Below are positions 8,551 to 58,235 of a stretch of 64,000 nt of DNA, one piece after another. The translations under genes were made by a program, and so were the position numbers. How positions within the stretch are numbered: the stretch's first letter is position 1; each line of letters starts with the position of its first letter. This DNA comes from Patescibacteria group bacterium. Its GTDB lineage: Bacteria; Patescibacteriota; Patescibacteriia; Patescibacteriales; JBAZCA01. The stretch is taken from contig JBAZUL010000004.1 in the NCBI GenBank assembly GCA_041661405.1, positions 15,309-79,308 on the forward strand, in the 5' to 3' direction. Under the pieces are notes generated by a model. That model was not told the origin of the DNA. It saw nothing but the letters and a program-made list of their open reading frames with translations, and did not search any database.

Positions 8551-9514
8551 AGTAAACAAAATAAAAGAAGCAATAATCGCCGTTACTTATCGGTGCAATT
8601 CGCGATGCCGGATGTGTAATATCTGGCAAAGTAAAGAATGGAATGAAATTTCCCCGGAATTGCTCGCGAATTTGCCGAAAAATATTAAAGACGTGAATCT
8701 AACCGGCGGGGAGCCATTTTTGTATTCTGATCTTCCAGGAGCGGTTCGCGCTATTTCCGGCCGCCTGCCAAAGGCGAGGATTATTATTTCCACTAACGGA
8801 TTCTTAACCGGCCGGATTACCGAGGCGATGAAAAAAATTATTAAGATTAAGCCCGATATCGGCGCAGCAGTCTCTCTTGACGGCATTGGCCGGGCTCATG
8901 ACGAAATCCGGGGAATTCCTGGAGGATTTGAAATGGCGTTGACCACCATAAAGGAATTAAAAAAAATCGGGGTTAAACATTTAAAAATCGGATTTACTAT
9001 CGGCGATTATAATTATAAAGAACTGCCGAAAGTGTACGCGCTTTCCAAAGAACTGGGAACCGAATTTACTATCGCTTTGGTTCATTCAAGTGAAAGCTAT
9101 TTTCAAAAAGAAAACGCAACCCATAAAAAGAATGAAATCAGGGAAATACTAGAATGGCTGAAGCATGAAGAACTGAGAAGCTGGTACCCAAAGCGCTGGG
9201 CTCGGGCGTATTTTACTCACGGGTTAATTGAGTTTTTGGATTATGAAAAAAGAATCTTGCCCGATTATTCCGGCCAGCTGAATATTTTCATTGATCCGGC
9301 GGGAAAAATTTTTCCTTGCGATGTTTCCGGCGAAGATTTGGGAAGCCTGGCTGATAATCCCTTAAAATGGCGGTCCATCGGCGTCTGCACGGCCGGAGAA
9401 AAGAGCTGGATGATCTGCACGGCCCGGCAGTCTATGAAAAAACACTGGGTTAAGGCCGGGAGTTGGATAATTTTTAATAAATTCAGGAGTTTAACGGGCG
9501 TGAATCCGGTTTAA
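8537..9514 (+). CDS. Radical SAM protein (unknown substrate) in glycan cluster
   Basis: CNSRCRMC is a CX3CX2C motif near the N-terminus, with TGGEPF nearby and additional C-terminal cysteines. The start overlaps the upstream gene by 14 nt. Confidence 0.75.
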   Translation: MTNNKVNKIKEAIIAVTYRCNSRCRMCNIWQSKEWNEISPELLANLPKNIKDVNLTGGEPFLYSDLPGAVRAISGRLPKARIIISTNGFLTGRITEAMKKIIKIKPDIGAAVSLDGIGRAHDEIRGIPGGFEMALTTIKELKKIGVKHLKIGFTIGDYNYKELPKVYALSKELGTEFTIALVHSSESYFQKENATHKKNEIREILEWLKHEELRSWYPKRWARAYFTHGLIEFLDYEKRILPDYSGQLNIFIDPAGKIFPCDVSGEDLGSLADNPLKWRSIGVCTAGEKSWMICTARQSMKKHWVKAGSWIIFNKFRSLTGVNPV

Positions 9515-16869: not shown

Positions 16870-17868
16870 ATGGAATATAATCACATACCGGTAATGCTCA
16901 ACGAGGCTTTGGAATATCTAAACCCGAAGCCCGGCGGTTACTATATTGACTGCACTTTGGGAGGAGGAGGATATACCCGGGCGATAGCTGAACGAATCGG
17001 TGAAGCGGGAAAAGTATTAGCCATTGATGCCGATGAGCTGGCGATAGAAAATTCAAAGTTAAAAGTTCAAAGTTTAAAGTTAGAGAATATTATTTTATCC
17101 CATGCGAATTTCAGGAATTTATCAACAATTATCAAGGAAAATTTCCCTGAGCCAGGCGTTAAGTTTGACGGCGTTGTATTTGATCTTGGTCTATCAAGCG
17201 CTCAGCTCTCGCGTGAAACCGGAGGTTTTTCTTTTAAAATGGCTGAAGCTGGATTAGACATGGCTTTTGGAATGCCGAATGGCGGATGCCGAATGGCGGA
17301 TGATGGAAGCCGGAGGCCGGAAAACGGTTGCCGAAGCACGGAAGAAATTGTTAATTCGTGGCCGAAAGATGATCTGGCTGGGATATTTATGGAATTCGGC
17401 GAAGAAAGGTTTGCCTGGCGGATTGCCGAAAAGATTGCCGAAAAAAGGAAAAAGAAAAAAATAAAAACCGTCGGTGAGCTGGTTGAGATAATAAACATGG
17501 CGGTGCCGGCCTTTTACAAGAGAGGAAAAATTCATCCGGCGACGAAAGTTTTTCAGGCGTTAAGAATTGCCACTAATGACGAACTCGGGGCTTTAAGCGA
17601 AGTCCTGCCGCGGGCGGCGGATTCCTTAAAAGAAGGAGGCAGGCTGGTTATTGTTTCTTACCACAGTCTTGAGGACCGGATAGTAAAAAAGTTTTTTAAA
17701 GATAACTCGCTGAAAAACGTAAAACAATCAAAATACGGCGAAAAAGAGGATAGCAGAAAAGCCGATTTAAAAATTTTAACGAAAAAAGTCATTATCCCCT
17801 CCTACGAAGAAATAAAAAATAATCCGCGGTCGCGAAGCGCGAAGCTAAGAGCGGCGGAGAAATTATAA
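16870..17868 (+). CDS. rsmH: 16S rRNA (cytosine1402-N4)-methyltransferase RsmH, with low-complexity inserts
   Basis: HIPVMLNEALEYL, DCTLGGGGYT, FDLGLSSAQL, VSYHSLEDRIVK and NPRSRSAKLR motifs are all present. Confidence 0.9.
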   Translation: MEYNHIPVMLNEALEYLNPKPGGYYIDCTLGGGGYTRAIAERIGEAGKVLAIDADELAIENSKLKVQSLKLENIILSHANFRNLSTIIKENFPEPGVKFDGVVFDLGLSSAQLSRETGGFSFKMAEAGLDMAFGMPNGGCRMADDGSRRPENGCRSTEEIVNSWPKDDLAGIFMEFGEERFAWRIAEKIAEKRKKKKIKTVGELVEIINMAVPAFYKRGKIHPATKVFQALRIATNDELGALSEVLPRAADSLKEGGRLVIVSYHSLEDRIVKKFFKDNSLKNVKQSKYGEKEDSRKADLKILTKKVIIPSYEEIKNNPRSRSAKLRAAEKL

Positions 17869-21718: not shown

Positions 21719-21754
21719 ATCCCCGTCTCGCTCTCGGCGAGCCGAGGCGGAAAA
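21719..21754 (+). repeat. Intergenic copy of tsaB module-A palindromic core
   Basis: ATCCCCGTCTCGCTCTCGGCGAGCCGAGGCGGAAAA compared with 15761-15796 shows 2 substitutions and 1 indel. Its 3' end (GAGGCGG) supplies the SD for mnmA. Confidence 0.85.
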
Positions 21755-22927
21755 ATGGAGAATGACAGAGATAAAATGAAAAATAAAAAATCAAAAATTA
21801 TCGTCGCCATGTCGGGAGGAGTGGATTCATCGGTTTCCGCTCTTCTTTTAAAAAAGGCCGGTTTTAACGTGGAGGGGCTTTATATGAAACTGCCGGGCGC
21901 TGATTCGGGTTCGCTCCGGGCGGCCAAAGAAGTGGCGAAAAAACTGGGCATAAAATTCCATGCCATTAGCATGGAAAAAAAATTCAGGAGAGAAATCATC
22001 GGATATTTTCTTAAAAGCTATAAGCGCGGCATTACCCCAAACCCGTGCGTCCGATGCAACCAGCGGATTAAATTCGGCGAACTGTTAAAAACCGCGGAAA
22101 AATTGGGTGGTGATTATCTCGCGACCGGACACTATATTCAATTGGCAATTAATGAATCAAAAGTTCGGCTAAAGAAGCCGATTAAGCTGTTAAAAGCGAA
22201 AGATGTTTTAAAGGATCAAAGTTATTTTTTGTATACATTGACCCAGAAGAGACTGAACAGGGTTATGTTTCCTTTGGGCGGGATGTTAAAAGAAGACGTA
22301 AAAAAAATCGCTGAAAAAGCCGGCTTGCCGAATATAAAAAAAGAAAGCCAGGATATTTGTTTTTTACATTGCGACGGCAAGGCGGTCCAGCATAACGAGT
22401 TTTTAAGAAAAAACCTGAAACTAAAACCCGGGTCAATCATGCTTTTGGAAAAGGAGATTAACGAAAAAACAGGAGAACGGAAATCTGTCCGGCTCACGTC
22501 CGGTAAAAATCCTGTGGAGCATCAGGGTCTGCCGCTCTATACTATCGGTCAGCGCCGGGAAATAAGAATCGGCGGAACCGGGCCTTACTACGCCGCCCGG
22601 TTTGACGTAAAGAAAAATATTTTATACGTTGTGAAAAATTTTGACGACCCGGTTTTGTACCAAGATGGATTAAATGCCAAAGGCGTAAGCTGGGTCGCCG
22701 GCATCGCGCCGAAAATGCCGCTTAAATGCGAAGCTGTAATCCGCTACCGCCACGCGCCTATAAAATGCGAAGTTGTGAAAAAAGGCAGCTCATACATGGT
22801 AAAATTTAAAAAACCCCAGCGCGCCGTAACTCCCGGACAAAGCGTAGTGTTTTACCAAGGTCGGGAGGTTTTGGGCGGGGGCGAGATAACCTTGTCAAAA
22901 CAGAAAATCTTCGCTACAATTAAGTAA
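21755..22927 (+). CDS. mnmA: tRNA 2-thiouridine(34) synthase MnmA
   Basis: IVAMSGGVDSSVSA PP-loop, NPCVRCN, KDQSYFL and YTIGQR motifs. An alternative start lies at 21776. Confidence 0.9.
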   Translation: MENDRDKMKNKKSKIIVAMSGGVDSSVSALLLKKAGFNVEGLYMKLPGADSGSLRAAKEVAKKLGIKFHAISMEKKFRREIIGYFLKSYKRGITPNPCVRCNQRIKFGELLKTAEKLGGDYLATGHYIQLAINESKVRLKKPIKLLKAKDVLKDQSYFLYTLTQKRLNRVMFPLGGMLKEDVKKIAEKAGLPNIKKESQDICFLHCDGKAVQHNEFLRKNLKLKPGSIMLLEKEINEKTGERKSVRLTSGKNPVEHQGLPLYTIGQRREIRIGGTGPYYAARFDVKKNILYVVKNFDDPVLYQDGLNAKGVSWVAGIAPKMPLKCEAVIRYRHAPIKCEVVKKGSSYMVKFKKPQRAVTPGQSVVFYQGREVLGGGEITLSKQKIFATIK

Positions 22928-25306: not shown

Positions 25307-25420
25307 ATGAAAGTGAGGTCTTCGGTAAAAATTGTATGCAAAGATTGCAAGATTGTCCGGCGCAAAGGCCGGCTTTGGGTAACCTGCAAAAATCCGAAGC
25401 ATAAGCAGAGGCAGGGATAG
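25307..25420 (+). CDS. rpmJ: Ribosomal protein L36 (absent from the ORF track)
   Basis: Manual translation gives [37 protein letters not shown] followed by TAG. It lies between infA and rpsM as in the canonical operon. Confidence 0.9.
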
Positions 25421-25506
25421 TGATTAGTTAATTAGGAAATTAGTTAATTAGTTAATTAGGAAATTTATCTATTCCCAAATTAACCGATTAACTAATCAAC
25501 CAATCC
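25421..25506 (+). repeat. TTAGTTAATTAGG word hairpin directly after the rpmJ stop
   Basis: GATTAGTTAATTAGGAAATTAGTTAATTAGTTAATTAGG opposes AATTAACCGATTAACTAATCAACC. Same word family as 28163 and 43991. Confidence 0.8.
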
Positions 25507-25899: not shown

Positions 25900-26018
25900 A
25901 TCAATCTTCAATTTTTAAATCTTCAATCTGCAACTATTGAATTTGTGATTCACTTGACTGATTAAAAATACTGAATTTTAGATAATTGAAGATTGAAGAT
26001 TGAAAAATTGAATAAATT
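25900..26018 (+). repeat. TCTTCAAT / ATTGAAGA word hairpin directly after the rpsM stop
   Basis: It begins TAAATCAATCTTCAATTT, nearly the same as TAAATCAATCTACAATTT at 45287. The right arm is AATTGAAGATTGAAGATTGA. Confidence 0.8.
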
Positions 26019-26609: not shown

Positions 26610-26615
26610 AAAATG

Positions 26616-26682
26616 AGTTAAAAGTTCAAAGTGTAATGTTAAAAGTTGCGATTCCTTAACTTTCAACTTTGAACTTTTAACT
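26616..26682 (+). repeat. Perfect 17-bp AAAGTTCAAAGT word hairpin between rpsK and rpsD
   Basis: AGTTAAAAGTTCAAAGT (26616-26632) is the exact reverse complement of ACTTTGAACTTTTAACT (26666-26682). The same words occur in rsmH and tsaB. Confidence 0.9.
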
Positions 26683-26696
26683 TGAGCGAAGCGATT

Positions 26697-27346: not shown

Positions 27347-28162
27347 ATGGAAACCATAGCTTTACCCCAGAACGTGGAATTTAACAAAGGCGCCGGACCC
27401 CATGAATCTCTGGCGTCCATTTATCCCTGCTACCCAGGCTACGGAATTACTCTCGGCAATTCGCTTCGCCGGGTGCTTCTTTCCAGTCTGCCGGGAGCGG
27501 CTGTAATCGGTGTAAAAATAAAAGGAGCGGACCATGAATTCATGTCGCTTCCGCACGTCAAAGAAGATGTTCTGGAAATAATTTTGAATTTAAAAAAATT
27601 GAGACTGAAAGTTTTTTCCGACGAACCAATAATACTTAAACTTAGCGCTCATGGCGAGAAAAAAGTAAAAGCCGGGGATATCGCCAAATCCAGCCAGATT
27701 GAGATAATTAACCCGGAGCTTGTTATCGCCGGAATCACCGACATGGCCGGCAATCTGGAGATGGAAATTCACGTCGCCCAGGGCAAAGGCTATGAGCCGG
27801 TTGAAGCCAGGGAAAAGAAAAATTCTGAAATCGGCTATATTGAGATAGATTCCATTTTTACGCCGGTGCTCAAGGTCGGAATTGACATTGAAAACATCCG
27901 CGTCGGCAAGATGACTAACTGGGAAAAGCTTAAACTGGACATAAAAACCGACGGGACCATGGAACCCGAAGAAGCTTTTGAAAAAGCGGCTAAAATATTG
28001 ATTGAACAGTTTAAAGCTTTAGTCGGAAAAGAAAAAGCGACGGACGAAGCCGGGGAAGCGAAAGAAGTTTTGGAAAGCGAGGCCGGCGACGGCGACGCGT
28101 CCGAGGCTGAAGAAGGAGTTAAAGAATCCGGAAAGAAGCGGGGAAGGCCGAAGAAAGGATAA
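27347..28162 (+). CDS. rpoA: RNA polymerase alpha subunit, N-terminal domain only, with acidic tail and terminal AT-hook-like KKRGRPKKG
   Basis: Alpha-NTD motifs are present (GYGITLGNSLRRVLLSSLPGAAV). The protein is 271 aa. No helix-hairpin-helix alpha-CTD sequence follows about residue 225. Confidence 0.85.
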   Translation: METIALPQNVEFNKGAGPHESLASIYPCYPGYGITLGNSLRRVLLSSLPGAAVIGVKIKGADHEFMSLPHVKEDVLEIILNLKKLRLKVFSDEPIILKLSAHGEKKVKAGDIAKSSQIEIINPELVIAGITDMAGNLEMEIHVAQGKGYEPVEAREKKNSEIGYIEIDSIFTPVLKVGIDIENIRVGKMTNWEKLKLDIKTDGTMEPEEAFEKAAKILIEQFKALVGKEKATDEAGEAKEVLESEAGDGDASEAEEGVKESGKKRGRPKKG

Positions 28163-28218
28163 TTAGTTGATTAGTTAATTGGTTAATTAGGATTGCGTTA
28201 ATAACTAATTAACCAAGG
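28163..28218 (+). repeat. TTAGTTGATTAG word hairpin directly after the rpoA stop
   Basis: TTAGTTGATTAGTTAATTGGTTAATTAGGA differs at 1 of 30 nt from 43991-44020. The right arm is CTAATTAACCAA. Confidence 0.85.
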
Positions 28219-35515: not shown

Positions 35516-37495
35516 CTATTTTACCCCATACTTAAACACGTAATCCTGTCCGTTGCAAAAGGCCTTAAAAGAATCAGCCGAGAGTTTAGCCTCGTCTAAA
35601 ACTTTGGGAAATTCAAACCAGTATTTGTTTAAGACAAAATAGCCGGTTTTAACGTCCGCCAGGTTCATGGCCTTATTTATCCTTACGGCCGTCGGCTTAT
35701 CGTAAACCATGGCTAAATAATACTGGTAAAGCGCGCCGCCGGTCGGAATCGGGTAATTAAAAATTTCTTCGCCGGTTTTCGTTTTTACGTAATTAGTAAA
35801 GCCGAATTCGTAAAGAGCCCCGGCCGAAACCTGCTGGTTGGCAAGGACAATATATTTTTCTCCGGCCGCGTCCGCGTTAATCCACTTTATCGCTTCTAAA
35901 TCACAGGCTCCGGTTGAATAGCCCCGGGAATTAAAATAAGCGTCATAGCGCGGGTAAGAAATATAGAGCGAGGCAATGATAAGAACCGCGAAAAATATCA
36001 GGTTGGAATAAAGGACAAGTCCCGCGGAAGTGGTGATTTTTTTGACATACCAGCCAAAGATTAGAAAAATGAACGGTAGGAGAAACATGAAAGAAAGAAA
36101 TAAAATCCGGTCCGAATAAGCTGAGCGTTCGTAATTTATAAGAAAGCTGAAAGAAAGGGCTTCGGTCAAAAGATAGGAAAAAAAGAGCGAGATTGCCATG
36201 AAAAAATATGCCTGGTATTTTTTAAATCGCTTTTGGTAAATCGCGAAACCGATCCCGGTTAGCGCGATAAGCAGAAAAATTTTTGCTCCGTTTTGGGTGA
36301 TCAAATAGGCAAAATTAAGAAAAATGTTCTCGCGGTTGGGAAAGCTTAAAAAAAGATTAGCCGCGATTGAAGTAAAAATTTCCGAAAGACCGGCAAGGGG
36401 GGTTTCGCGCGGCCCGGCGGTCTGCTTTTCAAAAATATAAAAAGCGGCCGGGAGCGACAAAGCGGACGAGGAGTAAATTAAGAGATAGATATATTTTCTA
36501 AACAACGGCATTAAAATTTTTAATTTTTGCCCGTCTTTCGCGAGATACGCGTGAAGCAGACCAGCCAATGAAAAAAATATGAGCGGCAGACCGGCCAGCG
36601 GATGGATTATAAAGGCGGCCAGCGATAAAAGAAGGAGAAGGAAAAAATCCGCCGGTTTTTTCGCCCGAAGCCCGAGGAGAATGACGATGAGGGCAATAAG
36701 GAAAGCCAGGTTCTGCGGCGTGGTTTGGATTAAAAAAGAAAAGGGAAAGATCAGAAGCAGAGCCGCGGAAAAAACCGGGTTTTCATGGCCTTCGGAGCGG
36801 AAAGTTTTTACGGCCAGGGCGGGTAAGACAAGGGCGGCGAGCGCCGGAACCAGGAAAGTATTTATCCAGCCAAGCGGAATGAAAAATAGTTTATGGAGAA
36901 TTATGGCCAGTCCGTAATAGCCTGAGTAGTAGATGGTTTTCGGCGCGATAAAGCCGGCCGCGCCAATCACTTTCAGGGCGGCGGCGTGGATGAAAGGATC
37001 AAACCCGTAGCCTATTTTGTAAATTATGACGGCGACAGCGAATGAAAGGAAAAAGTGAAAGAAAATAAGTATTATGTATTTTGTATTATGTATTTTGTAT
37101 TTGAAAAATTGAGAAGTCAAGTATATAAGTAATAACGAGGCGAGAAAATAAAATACGAAAAAGTAAGCCGGTATAACCTGCCAGGGCGAGATTATGGCCT
37201 GATTCGTGCGGCTAATAAATAAAGAATAGAAAGCCATTCCCGAAAAGATTAAATAGAGGCTGGCCGGTAAAATGGCTGTGAGCCAGTTTTTCAGGCTGAT
37301 TTTTTTTTCAGCCGGTTCATACAAAGCCGCGAGTTTTTCTTCCCCGAGGACAAAATAGGGAAGAAACTTCCAGCCAAAAGCAATAGTAATGGCGGCGCTA
37401 AGAAAGATTCCGATAGAATCAAGCCGGTAAAAATAATAAACCAGTCCGCTGGAAAGCGATAAAATTGAGACAAAAGCCAGGACTATGTTTAGCAT
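35516..37495 (-). CDS. Polytopic membrane protein with C-terminal soluble domain (possible GT-C-like, unassigned)
   Basis: 659 aa with more than 12 hydrophobic segments. No motif recognised. It contains an exact 14-nt tandem duplication at 37070-37097. Confidence 0.6.
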   Translation of the reverse strand: MLNIVLAFVSILSLSSGLVYYFYRLDSIGIFLSAAITIAFGWKFLPYFVLGEEKLAALYEPAEKKISLKNWLTAILPASLYLIFSGMAFYSLFISRTNQAIISPWQVIPAYFFVFYFLASLLLIYLTSQFFKYKIHNTKYIILIFFHFFLSFAVAVIIYKIGYGFDPFIHAAALKVIGAAGFIAPKTIYYSGYYGLAIILHKLFFIPLGWINTFLVPALAALVLPALAVKTFRSEGHENPVFSAALLLIFPFSFLIQTTPQNLAFLIALIVILLGLRAKKPADFFLLLLLSLAAFIIHPLAGLPLIFFSLAGLLHAYLAKDGQKLKILMPLFRKYIYLLIYSSSALSLPAAFYIFEKQTAGPRETPLAGLSEIFTSIAANLFLSFPNRENIFLNFAYLITQNGAKIFLLIALTGIGFAIYQKRFKKYQAYFFMAISLFFSYLLTEALSFSFLINYERSAYSDRILFLSFMFLLPFIFLIFGWYVKKITTSAGLVLYSNLIFFAVLIIASLYISYPRYDAYFNSRGYSTGACDLEAIKWINADAAGEKYIVLANQQVSAGALYEFGFTNYVKTKTGEEIFNYPIPTGGALYQYYLAMVYDKPTAVRINKAMNLADVKTGYFVLNKYWFEFPKVLDEAKLSADSFKAFCNGQDYVFKYGVK

Positions 37496-42926: not shown

Positions 42927-43994
42927 ATGCCTATAAAAATAAAACCAATCACTGACGAAAAATCCTGGCAAGATTTTGAGAAGATTCGCGCGCCGCATAC
43001 TTTTCTGCAAACCTGGGAATGGGGAGCCGCGCAGGAGCTTCTTGGCAATAAAATTTTTCGGCTGGGGATTTACGGCAACGGCAAAATTCAGGGAACCGCT
43101 TTTGCTTATAAAATCAGCGCCCGGCGGGGATCGTTTTTGTTCTGTCCGCACGGCCCGTCAATTGACTGGAAATGCTCTGAATTTCCGCAAAATACGAAAA
43201 AAACAAAATACGAAAATTTTGATAATTTTCGGGCGCTGGCCGGTTATTTGCGCGAACTGGGAAAAAGCGAGAGAGTGGGATTCGTTCGGATTAGTTCGCT
43301 GGCTCCGGATAATGATGACATGAAAAAACTTTTTCGGGATTCCGGTTTTATTTCGGCGCCGGTTCATATGATGCATCCGGAAAACGCCTGGATCCTTGAT
43401 ATTGACCGGCCGGAAGAAGAAATAATCGGCGCCATGAAAAAAAGAACCCGCTATTCAATCCGCAAAGCGGAAAAAGACGGCATAAAAATTACGACATCAG
43501 CCAATCCGGCCGACGTGAGGCTATTTTATGAAATGTATCTTGAAACCGCCAGACGGCAGAAATTCGTCCCGTTTTCGGAGAGCTATATCCGGCGCGAATT
43601 TGAAATATTCCGGAAAAATAATAAAGCCCTGATGTTTTTTGCTTATTTTAAAGGGAAACTCATTTCCGCGGCTGTAATTATTTTTTCTTCTAAAATGGCT
43701 TTTTATCATCACGGCGCTTCAATCCGGTCGGATAATTCCGGCCTCACGGCCTCGGAATTACTGCAATGGAACGTCATCCTTGAAGCCCGGCACCGGGGAC
43801 TCGCTAGCTATAATTTTTGGGGCATCGCGCCGGAGAATTGCCCGAAACATCCTTGGCACGGTTTGACAACTTTTAAAAAAGGTTTTGGAGGACATCCGGA
43901 AAATTATCTGCACGCCCAAGACCTTGTAATTTCGCCGAAATATTGGTTAAATTACATAGTGGAAACGGTAAGACGGTGGAAGAGGGGATATTAG
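42927..43994 (+). CDS. FemAB/FemX-family aminoacyl-tRNA-dependent peptidyl/aminoacyl transferase
   Basis: FLQTWEWGAAQE, MKKRTRYSIRKAEKDGI, YHHGAS, LQWNVILEARHRG..YNFWGI and TTFKKGFGG motifs. The ATG at 42927 is preferred over the GTG at 42888. Confidence 0.8.
   Translation: MPIKIKPITDEKSWQDFEKIRAPHTFLQTWEWGAAQELLGNKIFRLGIYGNGKIQGTAFAYKISARRGSFLFCPHGPSIDWKCSEFPQNTKKTKYENFDNFRALAGYLRELGKSERVGFVRISSLAPDNDDMKKLFRDSGFISAPVHMMHPENAWILDIDRPEEEIIGAMKKRTRYSIRKAEKDGIKITTSANPADVRLFYEMYLETARRQKFVPFSESYIRREFEIFRKNNKALMFFAYFKGKLISAAVIIFSSKMAFYHHGASIRSDNSGLTASELLQWNVILEARHRGLASYNFWGIAPENCPKHPWHGLTTFKKGFGGHPENYLHAQDLVISPKYWLNYIVETVRRWKRGY
43188..43218 (+). repeat. 16-nt-period AAAATACGAAAA word repeat translated inside femX-like CDS
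   Basis: CAAAATACGAAAAAAACAAAATACGAAAATT differs at 1 of 31 nt from the intergenic 51560-51590. Here it encodes QNTKKTKYENF. Confidence 0.9.
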
Positions 43995-44074
43995 TTGATT
44001 AGTTGATTGGTTAATTAGGAAAAATATATTAACCAACCAACTAATTAACTAATCAACCAATTAACCAATTAACT
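43991..44074 (+). repeat. TTAGTTGATTAG word hairpin spanning the femX-like stop to the next ATG
   Basis: The left arm TTAGTTGATTAGTTGATTGGTTAATTAGG contains the TAG stop (43992-43994). The right arm is TTAACCAACCAACTAATTAACTAATCAACC. Confidence 0.85.
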
Positions 44075-54302: not shown

Positions 54303-54388
54303 TAAGTTATAAAGTTATAAAGTAAAAAGTTTAAAGTATTATATTTATACTTTTAGCCTTATACTTTATAACTTTAAACTTTATAACT
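54303..54388. repeat. GTTATAAAG / CTTTATAAC word hairpin in the clpB leader
   Basis: AGTTATAAAGTTATAAAGTAAAAAGTTTAAAGTAT opposes ATACTTTATAACTTTAAACTTTATAACT. Confidence 0.8.
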
Positions 54389-54401
54389 ATAAAAACATTA
54401 T

Positions 54402-57281: not shown

Positions 57282-58235
57282 TCAATTTTCAATTAATGTT
57301 TTTTCAGATAGATGTAAGATTAGTAATCTGTTATGACCCTTGAGGTCTTTTTTTATTTCCAGCCGCGCGTCCGGCAGATATTTTTTTATTATTTTTTTTA
57401 ATATTATGGTCTGCCGGGGGTCAAACTCAAAAAAGCAGGTAATGTTTTTTTTGTAGCTTGATGCAAGAACAGTAATTTGTTTTAACAACTTTTCGTAAAG
57501 TTGTAAGCCGTTTTTTCCAGTGTAAAGGGCGACAGGAGGCTCAAATTTTAAACCGATAGAGTCCTGGGAGCAGTTATTTTTCCAGGCCTTCCAGCCGTAG
57601 GGAAGATTGGCAGTGATTATTATTTTTGATTTTAGATTTAAGATTTTAGATTTAAGAATCGGTTCCAGCAGGTTGCCGCGAAAGAATTTAATTTTTTTTT
57701 CAACGCCGTGAAGTTTGGCGTTTTTTTTGGCGACAGAAAGGGCGGGTCTGGAAATGTCAGTGGCGAGGAAAGTGAATACTGAATGATGATTGATGAATAG
57801 AGGGTGATCAGCGGAAGACAAAAAAGAGTTGTGATTTATCAGCTTAGCTAGTGTTATTGCAATACAGCCTGAGCCTGTTCCGACATCAATAATTATGGTG
57901 TTATTATTAGTTTTAGGTTTTTGATTGCGAGTTATGGGTTGCGAGTTATGAATCGTGAGATTTAGAACTTCATCCACCATTAATTCTGTTTCCGGGCGGG
58001 GAACCAGGACATTATTATTGACTATGATATCCAACCCGTAAAATTCTTTGTGGCCGAGAATGTAGGCCAGAGGTTCGCCTTTTAATCTTCGCTCAATAAA
58101 ACTATCCAGCTTTCTTTGCCTGGCAGGCGATAATTTTATTTTTGGATAAGTCAAAACCCACTCCCTTGATTTATTGAGAATATGGGCTAATATAAGGTCT
58201 TTTTCAAGGGGAGAAATTTTATTCTTTACCCGCAT
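57282..58235 (-). CDS. prmC: Release-factor glutamine N5-methyltransferase PrmC with three repeat-derived inserts and NLPY in place of NPPY
   Basis: PLAYILGHKEFYGLDI, PRPETE, DVGTGSGCIAI and FEPPVAL motifs. It lies immediately downstream of prfA. Confidence 0.8.
   Translation of the reverse strand: MRVKNKISPLEKDLILAHILNKSREWVLTYPKIKLSPARQRKLDSFIERRLKGEPLAYILGHKEFYGLDIIVNNNVLVPRPETELMVDEVLNLTIHNSQPITRNQKPKTNNNTIIIDVGTGSGCIAITLAKLINHNSFLSSADHPLFINHHSVFTFLATDISRPALSVAKKNAKLHGVEKKIKFFRGNLLEPILKSKILNLKSKIIITANLPYGWKAWKNNCSQDSIGLKFEPPVALYTGKNGLQLYEKLLKQITVLASSYKKNITCFFEFDPRQTIILKKIIKKYLPDARLEIKKDLKGHNRLLILHLSEKTLIEN

Follow-up and report, generated by a model that had tools for sequence, protein, structure and literature searches.

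We consider it likely that the exact 14-nt tandem pair in the rsmH gene of a Patescibacteria group bacterium is the latest copy correction, or a compensated duplication, within a slippage-born tandem array of heptanucleotides that occupies a tolerant loop of an intact gene. On this reading the repeats of the gene are mutational footprints, not a device. The whole stretch of DNA analysed, referred to here as the window, is 64,000 nucleotides long and holds rsmH at 16870–17868 on the forward strand.

The gene itself looks normal and apparently functional as judged from its sequence, with N4-methylation of C1402 as its predicted activity. In a family profile search its intact, 332-residue product matches PF01795 (MraW/RsmH) over profile positions 2–308 of 309 (E 3.7e-97), scoring 326 bits against a curated cut-off of 27. 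It is identical to the annotated RsmH of a Patescibacteria MAG (NCBI MFA6106450.1), the same 332-residue record being held by both JGI/IMG and NCBI. An AlphaFold (AF2) model of the protein, computed with 120 homologues as input (pLDDT 88.4, pTM 0.84), finds its best Foldseek matches in the PDB in 1n2x, 1wg8 and 3tka (E 1e-27 to 1e-29), and is predicted to share the two-domain fold of the solved RsmH structures (target-normalised TM 0.88–0.92); the nearest solved relatives are the RsmH structures from Thermus, Thermotoga and E. coli, together with METTL15. All 36 columns that are invariant across 120 sequences are retained, as is the RsmH motif set of G-rich SAM loop, DxD, DLG-x-SS, HSLEDR and NPR-x-RSA. 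The gene follows mraZ in a dcw cluster of the order mraZ – rsmH – ftsL-like – PBP transpeptidase, with a Mur ligase (murE) next, as read in the near-identical contig L001. Three overlapping open reading frames on both strands, at 17202–17498 (−), 17254–17535 (−) and 17267–17464 (+), gave no significant family match and are taken as shadows.

In fold, motifs and gene neighbourhood the window protein is like canonical RsmH/MraW (E. coli 3TKA, T. maritima 1N2X, T. thermophilus 1WG8) and METTL15, from which it differs in having LDMAF for LDMRM, as does the rest of its clade, and about 17 additional loop residues after LDMAF. It also lacks a segment typical of its own clade: in both of our alignments (A1 and A3) most Patescibacteria RsmH sequences show a CxCx6CxC cluster (DCLCPPxxPxCQCxH) ahead of the C-terminal strand, and in the window protein and its three nearest relatives this is replaced by the Cys-free, low-confidence segment SLKNVKQSKYGEKEDSRKAD (residues ~279–299; 17704–17766). 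The LDMAFG motif (residues 129–134; 17254–17271, forward strand) does stand in the place of LDMRM, as had been read from the sequence, aligning with LDMRMG of Thermus 1wg8; the further suggestion of an altered motif fails, LDM-x-F-G being the Patescibacteria RsmH consensus (LDMAFG in A1, LDMxFG in A3), in which M131 is invariant and at least 90% of these proteins have F133. On the evidence of these alignments LDMAF is the clade form of LDMRM(D/G) and not a damaged version of it.

The exact duplication that the original prediction placed at 17272–17299 (site 2) is borne out by TRF and by direct check: ATGCCGAATGGCGG stands at 17272–17285 and again, unchanged, at 17286–17299 on the forward strand, with the periodicity running to 17302 (2.2 copies), and the same repeat is found in L001. 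The two copies are read in different frames, as MPNGG and CRMA, and the translations quoted earlier for this site and for site 1 (see below) are correct. What had been missed is that the exact 14-mer belongs, as its youngest part, to a decayed ten-heptanucleotide array with the approximate consensus ANGCCGG (17272–17341, forward strand), which encodes loop residues 135–158. From 17272 its first five units read ATGCCGA, ATGGCGG, ATGCCGA, ATGGCGG and ATGATGG, and the second five, ending at 17341, AAGCCGG, AGGCCGG, AAAACGG, TTGCCGA and AGCACGG; only 2.2 copies are exact, the other eight heptamers having diverged. The fraction of matching positions is 0.60, 0.73, 0.67 and 0.60 at lags of 7, 14, 21 and 28 nt, against about 0.3 at other lags, values that none of 5000 shuffles reached, also with one young copy removed. 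Since three heptamers make 21 nt, the peptide is built of 7-residue units (MPNGGCR, MADDGSR, RPENGCR), and TRF likewise reports a period of 21.

Alignment and model further uphold the view that the insert at site 2 is specific to this lineage and occupies a surface loop immediately following the LDM motif. The residues encoded by site 2 (135–144) fall within a coil that the AF2 model places at residues 122–156 with a pLDDT of only 52–62, and the loop from F133 to I160 measures 8–42 residues in 120 relatives, with a mode of 10 and 26 in the window, which by alignment makes this the most length-variable part of the family. The nearest relatives, at 80–81% amino-acid identity and with none closer in the databases searched, carry unrelated loops: P0003 (81% identical) has a minimal one of 10 residues and P0002 one of 32 residues. 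The latter begins with RPEDGRQ, a resemblance to the last array unit, RPENGCR, which suggests to us that a similar ancestral unit was probably the starting point of the array. Tandem words occur in the same loop of other relatives too (CGGAAGA twice in L002; MNQELGI/RNQELGM in P0059). Heptamer periodicity in the relatives' loops is nevertheless weak in L002 (lag 7, reached by 41 of 2000 shuffles) and absent in L005, which by this comparison marks the strong 7-nt array as specific to the lineage of the window. A point against our account is that the collections searched yielded no allele standing between the window and relatives at 80% identity. The METTL15 structure paper makes no statement on the loop after the LDM motif.

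The mismatch between a 14-nt unit and the reading frame, which the original prediction had pointed out, is real: with one copy removed a TGA follows directly after GMPNGG, and with one copy added the frame is shifted. A lone 14-nt duplication thus cannot have yielded the present allele from a working one, and either a length-neutral copy correction or a compensated indel is needed, so that any account of site 2 calls for a second, unobserved step. A short-lived null intermediate is conceivable in this regard, since deletion of rsmH in E. coli is viable and slows doubling by 15% (PMC2831307). We propose that in this lineage replication slippage or transient template misalignment creates and remodels short heptanucleotide tandem arrays, and that the ten-unit array would have lengthened the loop that joins the methyltransferase core (after LDMxFG) to the helical insert domain. 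Given the disorder of this loop and its variable length within the family, almost any in-frame sequence would be tolerated there. The exact 14-nt pair would be the most recent event in the array, produced either by the copying of one array unit over a diverged neighbour, with length unchanged, or by a duplication paired with a compensating indel, while selection would have removed out-of-frame intermediates. Both routes appear, from sequence comparisons, to be documented elsewhere in the same genome: correction at site 1, at 17421 and in a membrane-protein gene, and compensated frameshift in that same membrane-protein gene. The order and type of the events at site 2 are what we deduce, and the insert is assumed to be selectively neutral. 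Site 1 and the 12-nt repeat at 17421 would reflect the same process without change of length, acting on a surface helix and on an IAEK-IAEK segment, respectively.

Site 1 is a heptamer array of four to five TTNAAAG units that encodes residues 61–70 (NSKLKVQSLK; 17048–17082, forward strand). Direct check and TRF agree with the 14-nt period originally described, in which TTCAAAGTTAAAAG at 17052–17065 and TTCAAAGTTTAAAG at 17066–17079 are identical at 13 of 14 positions; TRF reports a period of 14 at 17048–17081 (2.4 copies, 90%) and a period of 7 at 17055–17082 (4 copies). The reading of site 1 as an insert, by contrast, has to be abandoned: the segment A58–L76 is 19 residues long in the window and in 93 of 120 relatives, so that no length change is seen, and in the AF2 model the site lies within a confident surface helix of the Rossmann core (residues 56–68, pLDDT ~95). 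The orthologous 33 nt align without indels, with AAGTT in all four units of the window and AAATT-type heptamers throughout the same stretch in L002, L004 and L009, a unit-wise difference that points to homogenisation. There is no sign of RNA structure at either site (z −0.68 and −0.56 for the two), and no inverted partner or complementary arm of site 1 occurs anywhere within rsmH. A third exact repeat of the gene, also missed before, was found by TRF at 17421–17444 (forward strand), where GATTGCCGAAAA stands twice in frame as IAEK IAEK with no length change. Its second unit is imperfect in relatives (GATTACTGAGAA in L004), and all three of the clustered differences make the second unit of the window equal to its first. 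We also observe that rsmH accounts for four of the window's repeat hits within 1 kb (17048, 17272, 17421 and an A-rich one at 17440–17467) and holds CGCGAAG twice at 17831, a repeat density that is a local excess over the other 50 open reading frames.

Both word repeats of rsmH are real and far beyond chance. The window holds four exact tandem duplications whose unit measures 12 nt or more, where dinucleotide shuffles give 0.01. It also holds 11 near-exact tandem stretches, defined by at least 18 matches out of 20, and shuffles preserving the composition of each 30-nt block again give 0.01. Four of these 11 have a period of 14, two of them being sites 1 and 2, and none of the four falls outside coding sequence. 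From simple slippage with a filter on frame one would expect periods in multiples of three, and this observation counts against the slippage account. An exact 14-nt repeat of 2.4 copies (37069–37101, reverse strand) lies in a 659-residue membrane-protein gene (35516–37495, reverse strand) with 90.6% nucleotide identity over the gene to its orthologue in L010. The latter (~8664–8694) has an exact 14-nt repeat of 2.2 copies in the same place, with 5 of 14 positions different from the window and identically so in both copies. Indels of −1 and +10 bracket the repeat, so the frame of the segment differs between the two species, leaving a patch of divergent residues in proteins that are otherwise 90% identical. 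Another exact 14-nt repeat, of 2.1 copies in prmC (57628–57657, reverse strand; gene 57282–58235), consists of five TCTWAAA heptamers and codes for KSKILNLKSKII, a conserved peptide immediately ahead of the NLPY motif. The orthologue in L013 (501–1394) carries both copies and matches the window over the whole repeat except for one insert, a 21-nt GC-rich palindrome CCTGCCTTGCCGGCAGGCAGG that lies in frame within copy 1 and yields SLPCRQAG. With both copies kept in a relative and a conserved peptide encoded, this comparison suggests that such repeats can be stable. A further tandem array, GAAAAAT in seven copies at 21750–21798, lies at the very start of an mnmA-like open reading frame (21755–22927), the true start codon of which may be downstream of it.

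How stable the copy number at site 2 is bears directly on two very different readings of the repeat. L001 comes from a second assembly (ENA ERZ27249449, contig k141_316777) and is 99.97% identical to the window over 15.3 kb, with 4 SNPs and, further on, a 30-nt indel; both rsmH repeats are unchanged in it, with the same copy number, though L001 is maybe not an independent sample. A one-residue variant of the window RsmH (P0001) was found with a contig, an exact-sequence look-up returned no DNA for the window RsmH or for P0241, and exact-pattern scans of the upstream and downstream junctions over JGI metagenome and GTDB genome contigs returned nothing and no copy-number variants. In these assemblies and records we find no sign of artefact or phase variation. 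It is very unlikely that site 2 is a contingency switch, in which 14-nt copies are gained and lost at a high rate and turn rsmH, m4C1402 and decoding fidelity on and off within a population. The immediate TGA or frameshift upon a change of one copy, the tolerance of rsmH loss in E. coli and the exact 14-nt repeats in two more genes of the window would all suit such a device; known phase-variable switches, however, use long tracts, and site 2 has just 2.2 exact copies, a number that the window shares with L001 and with the protein records at NCBI and JGI, while the prmC repeat, kept between species, suggests that repeats of this type are stable and the collection scans hold no variant allele. 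The comparison with contingency loci and "phasevarions" leads to a similar picture: the repeat unit, of a length not divisible by three, falls within the reading frame of a methyltransferase, such that a change of copy number means off, but there are only two exact copies with no copy-number polymorphism seen, and the target is neither a surface gene nor one of restriction-modification but that of a housekeeping rRNA methyltransferase. Even less credible, and to our mind extremely improbable, is that an assembler error created the second 14-nt copy or the open frame. Short tandem copies are indeed prone to assembly errors, yet the same sequence stands in L001, which does differ from the window by SNPs and the 30-nt indel elsewhere, the 332-residue protein is recorded at NCBI and JGI/IMG as well, the repeat, at 28 nt, falls well below the length of a read or of a k-mer of 141, and an erroneous 14-nt copy would break the frame, which is open and followed by sequence that aligns with the family.

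We see only a slim chance that the insert at site 2 is adaptive, the longer loop GMPNGGCRMADDGSRRPENGCRS having gained a function such as contact with the 30S subunit or helix 44, or replacement of the CxCx6CxC cluster. The loop is basic and Gly-rich, with two Cys and several Arg, it lies where the catalytic and helical domains meet, and the clade of the window is without the Cys cluster of most Patescibacteria RsmH; on the other hand, the loops of the nearest relatives are unrelated in sequence, 10 and 32 residues long and free of Cys, no structure is modelled there at a pLDDT of 52–62, and both Cys come from the repeated units and belong to no conserved motif. The specific idea that these two Cys replace the lost cluster was rejected because sister loops are without Cys. 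For site 1 only, the DNA repeat could follow from the encoding of a K/L-rich amphipathic helix by a small set of A/T-rich codons, with no repeat-specific mutation needed, and this we hold to be unlikely: the segment has the length typical of the family, its K-L-K-x-x-x-L-K pattern is conserved and the prmC repeat also encodes a conserved peptide, but shuffles of local composition give 0.01 such repeats against 11 observed, independent point changes are a poor explanation for AAGTT in four of four window units against AAATT throughout the orthologue, and the site matches a hairpin arm elsewhere at 24 of 25 positions.

The preferred reading, a slippage-born array with a length-neutral or compensated last event, has parallels among known processes. 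Site 2 resembles slippage duplications in surface loops of conserved proteins in its exact head-to-tail copies, its disordered and variable loop, its absence from close relatives and its net in-frame length. It departs from them in having a unit of 7 or 14 nt, which is not divisible by three, in preserving the frame only over the array as a whole, and in the different reading frames of its two copies. Templated quasi-repeat correction by transient misalignment is known from the misalignment-mutagenesis literature; as in such concerted evolution, the units at site 1, at 17421 and in the membrane-protein gene are similar within a lineage and differ between lineages with no change of length, although here this is deduced from comparisons of only two or three species and concerns very short units within coding sequence.

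For rsmH itself there is little consequence, in that the enzyme looks intact and the insert lies where the family tolerates anything; our verdict is that the event at site 2 is an ordinary, known kind of mutational footprint, and that the side observations are mildly more interesting. In practical terms, LDMAF should not be taken for a damaged motif, nor the site 2 repeat for a pseudogene, a frameshift site or an assembly error. The wider pattern, composed of concerted 14-nt coding repeats, compensated frameshifts around them and small in-frame GC-rich palindromes, could bear on how loop insertions are gained in reduced, uncultured bacteria. A speculative extension, to which we attach a low probability, is that a distinct mutational regime may operate here, in which 7- and 14-nt arrays in housekeeping genes (rsmH, prmC and the membrane-protein gene) are copy-corrected, their copies staying identical though read in different frames, and the same word arrays also build the intergenic hairpins; more boldly still, the rsmH pair would be a low-rate on/off switch of m4C1402 methylation.

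The words of site 1 do recur, as had been stated, in the rpsK-rpsD intergenic hairpin outside rsmH (26616–26682, no strand assigned; −24 kcal/mol, z −5.2), which is made of AAAGTTN words and the arms of which are matched by the 25-mer at 17057–17081 at 23 and 24 of 25 positions. Covariation of site 1 with this hairpin across species was considered and rejected, the orthologous spacer of L009 being without such a hairpin. In L009, AAATTAA words recur just upstream of rsmH and at its 3′ end. In our reading, heptamer arrays of the AAAGTT and AAATT types are frequent in these genomes, in spacers as well as in coding stretches rich in K, L and I, and we see no specific link between rsmH and the hairpin. 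An Rfam search over the whole window returned only one tRNA. Very stable hairpins were seen in the intergenic spacers at 25420–25460, 25901–26012, 26615–26683, 28160–28215, 43990–44073 and 54304–54393 (z −2.5 to −6.6), with arms made of tandem 7- or 8-nt words (AGTTAAA, ATTGAAG, ATTAGTTG, AAGTTATA); three of them have ATTAGTT/AATTAGG words in common, and these elements could act as terminators or belong to a dispersed repeat family.

Variable loops of the RsmH, PrmC and membrane-protein homologues (P0008, P0036, P0122, P0128, P0143, P0144, P0211, P0266 and others) repeatedly contain peptides of the LPxGRQ, AGRQ or RQAG type, and across those three families GRQ is observed 18 times against 8 expected. 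These peptides fit in-frame insertions of small CTGCC...GGCAG palindromes, with one example checked at the DNA level. Within the mnmA-like gene, at ~22145 of the window, L001 (15281–15310) has an additional 30 nt in frame that contain the perfect palindrome GGCAATCCCGAG-TG-CTCGGGATTGCC and are flanked by CAATTGG/CAATTGC direct repeats; this difference is a strain-level indel inside a coding gene.
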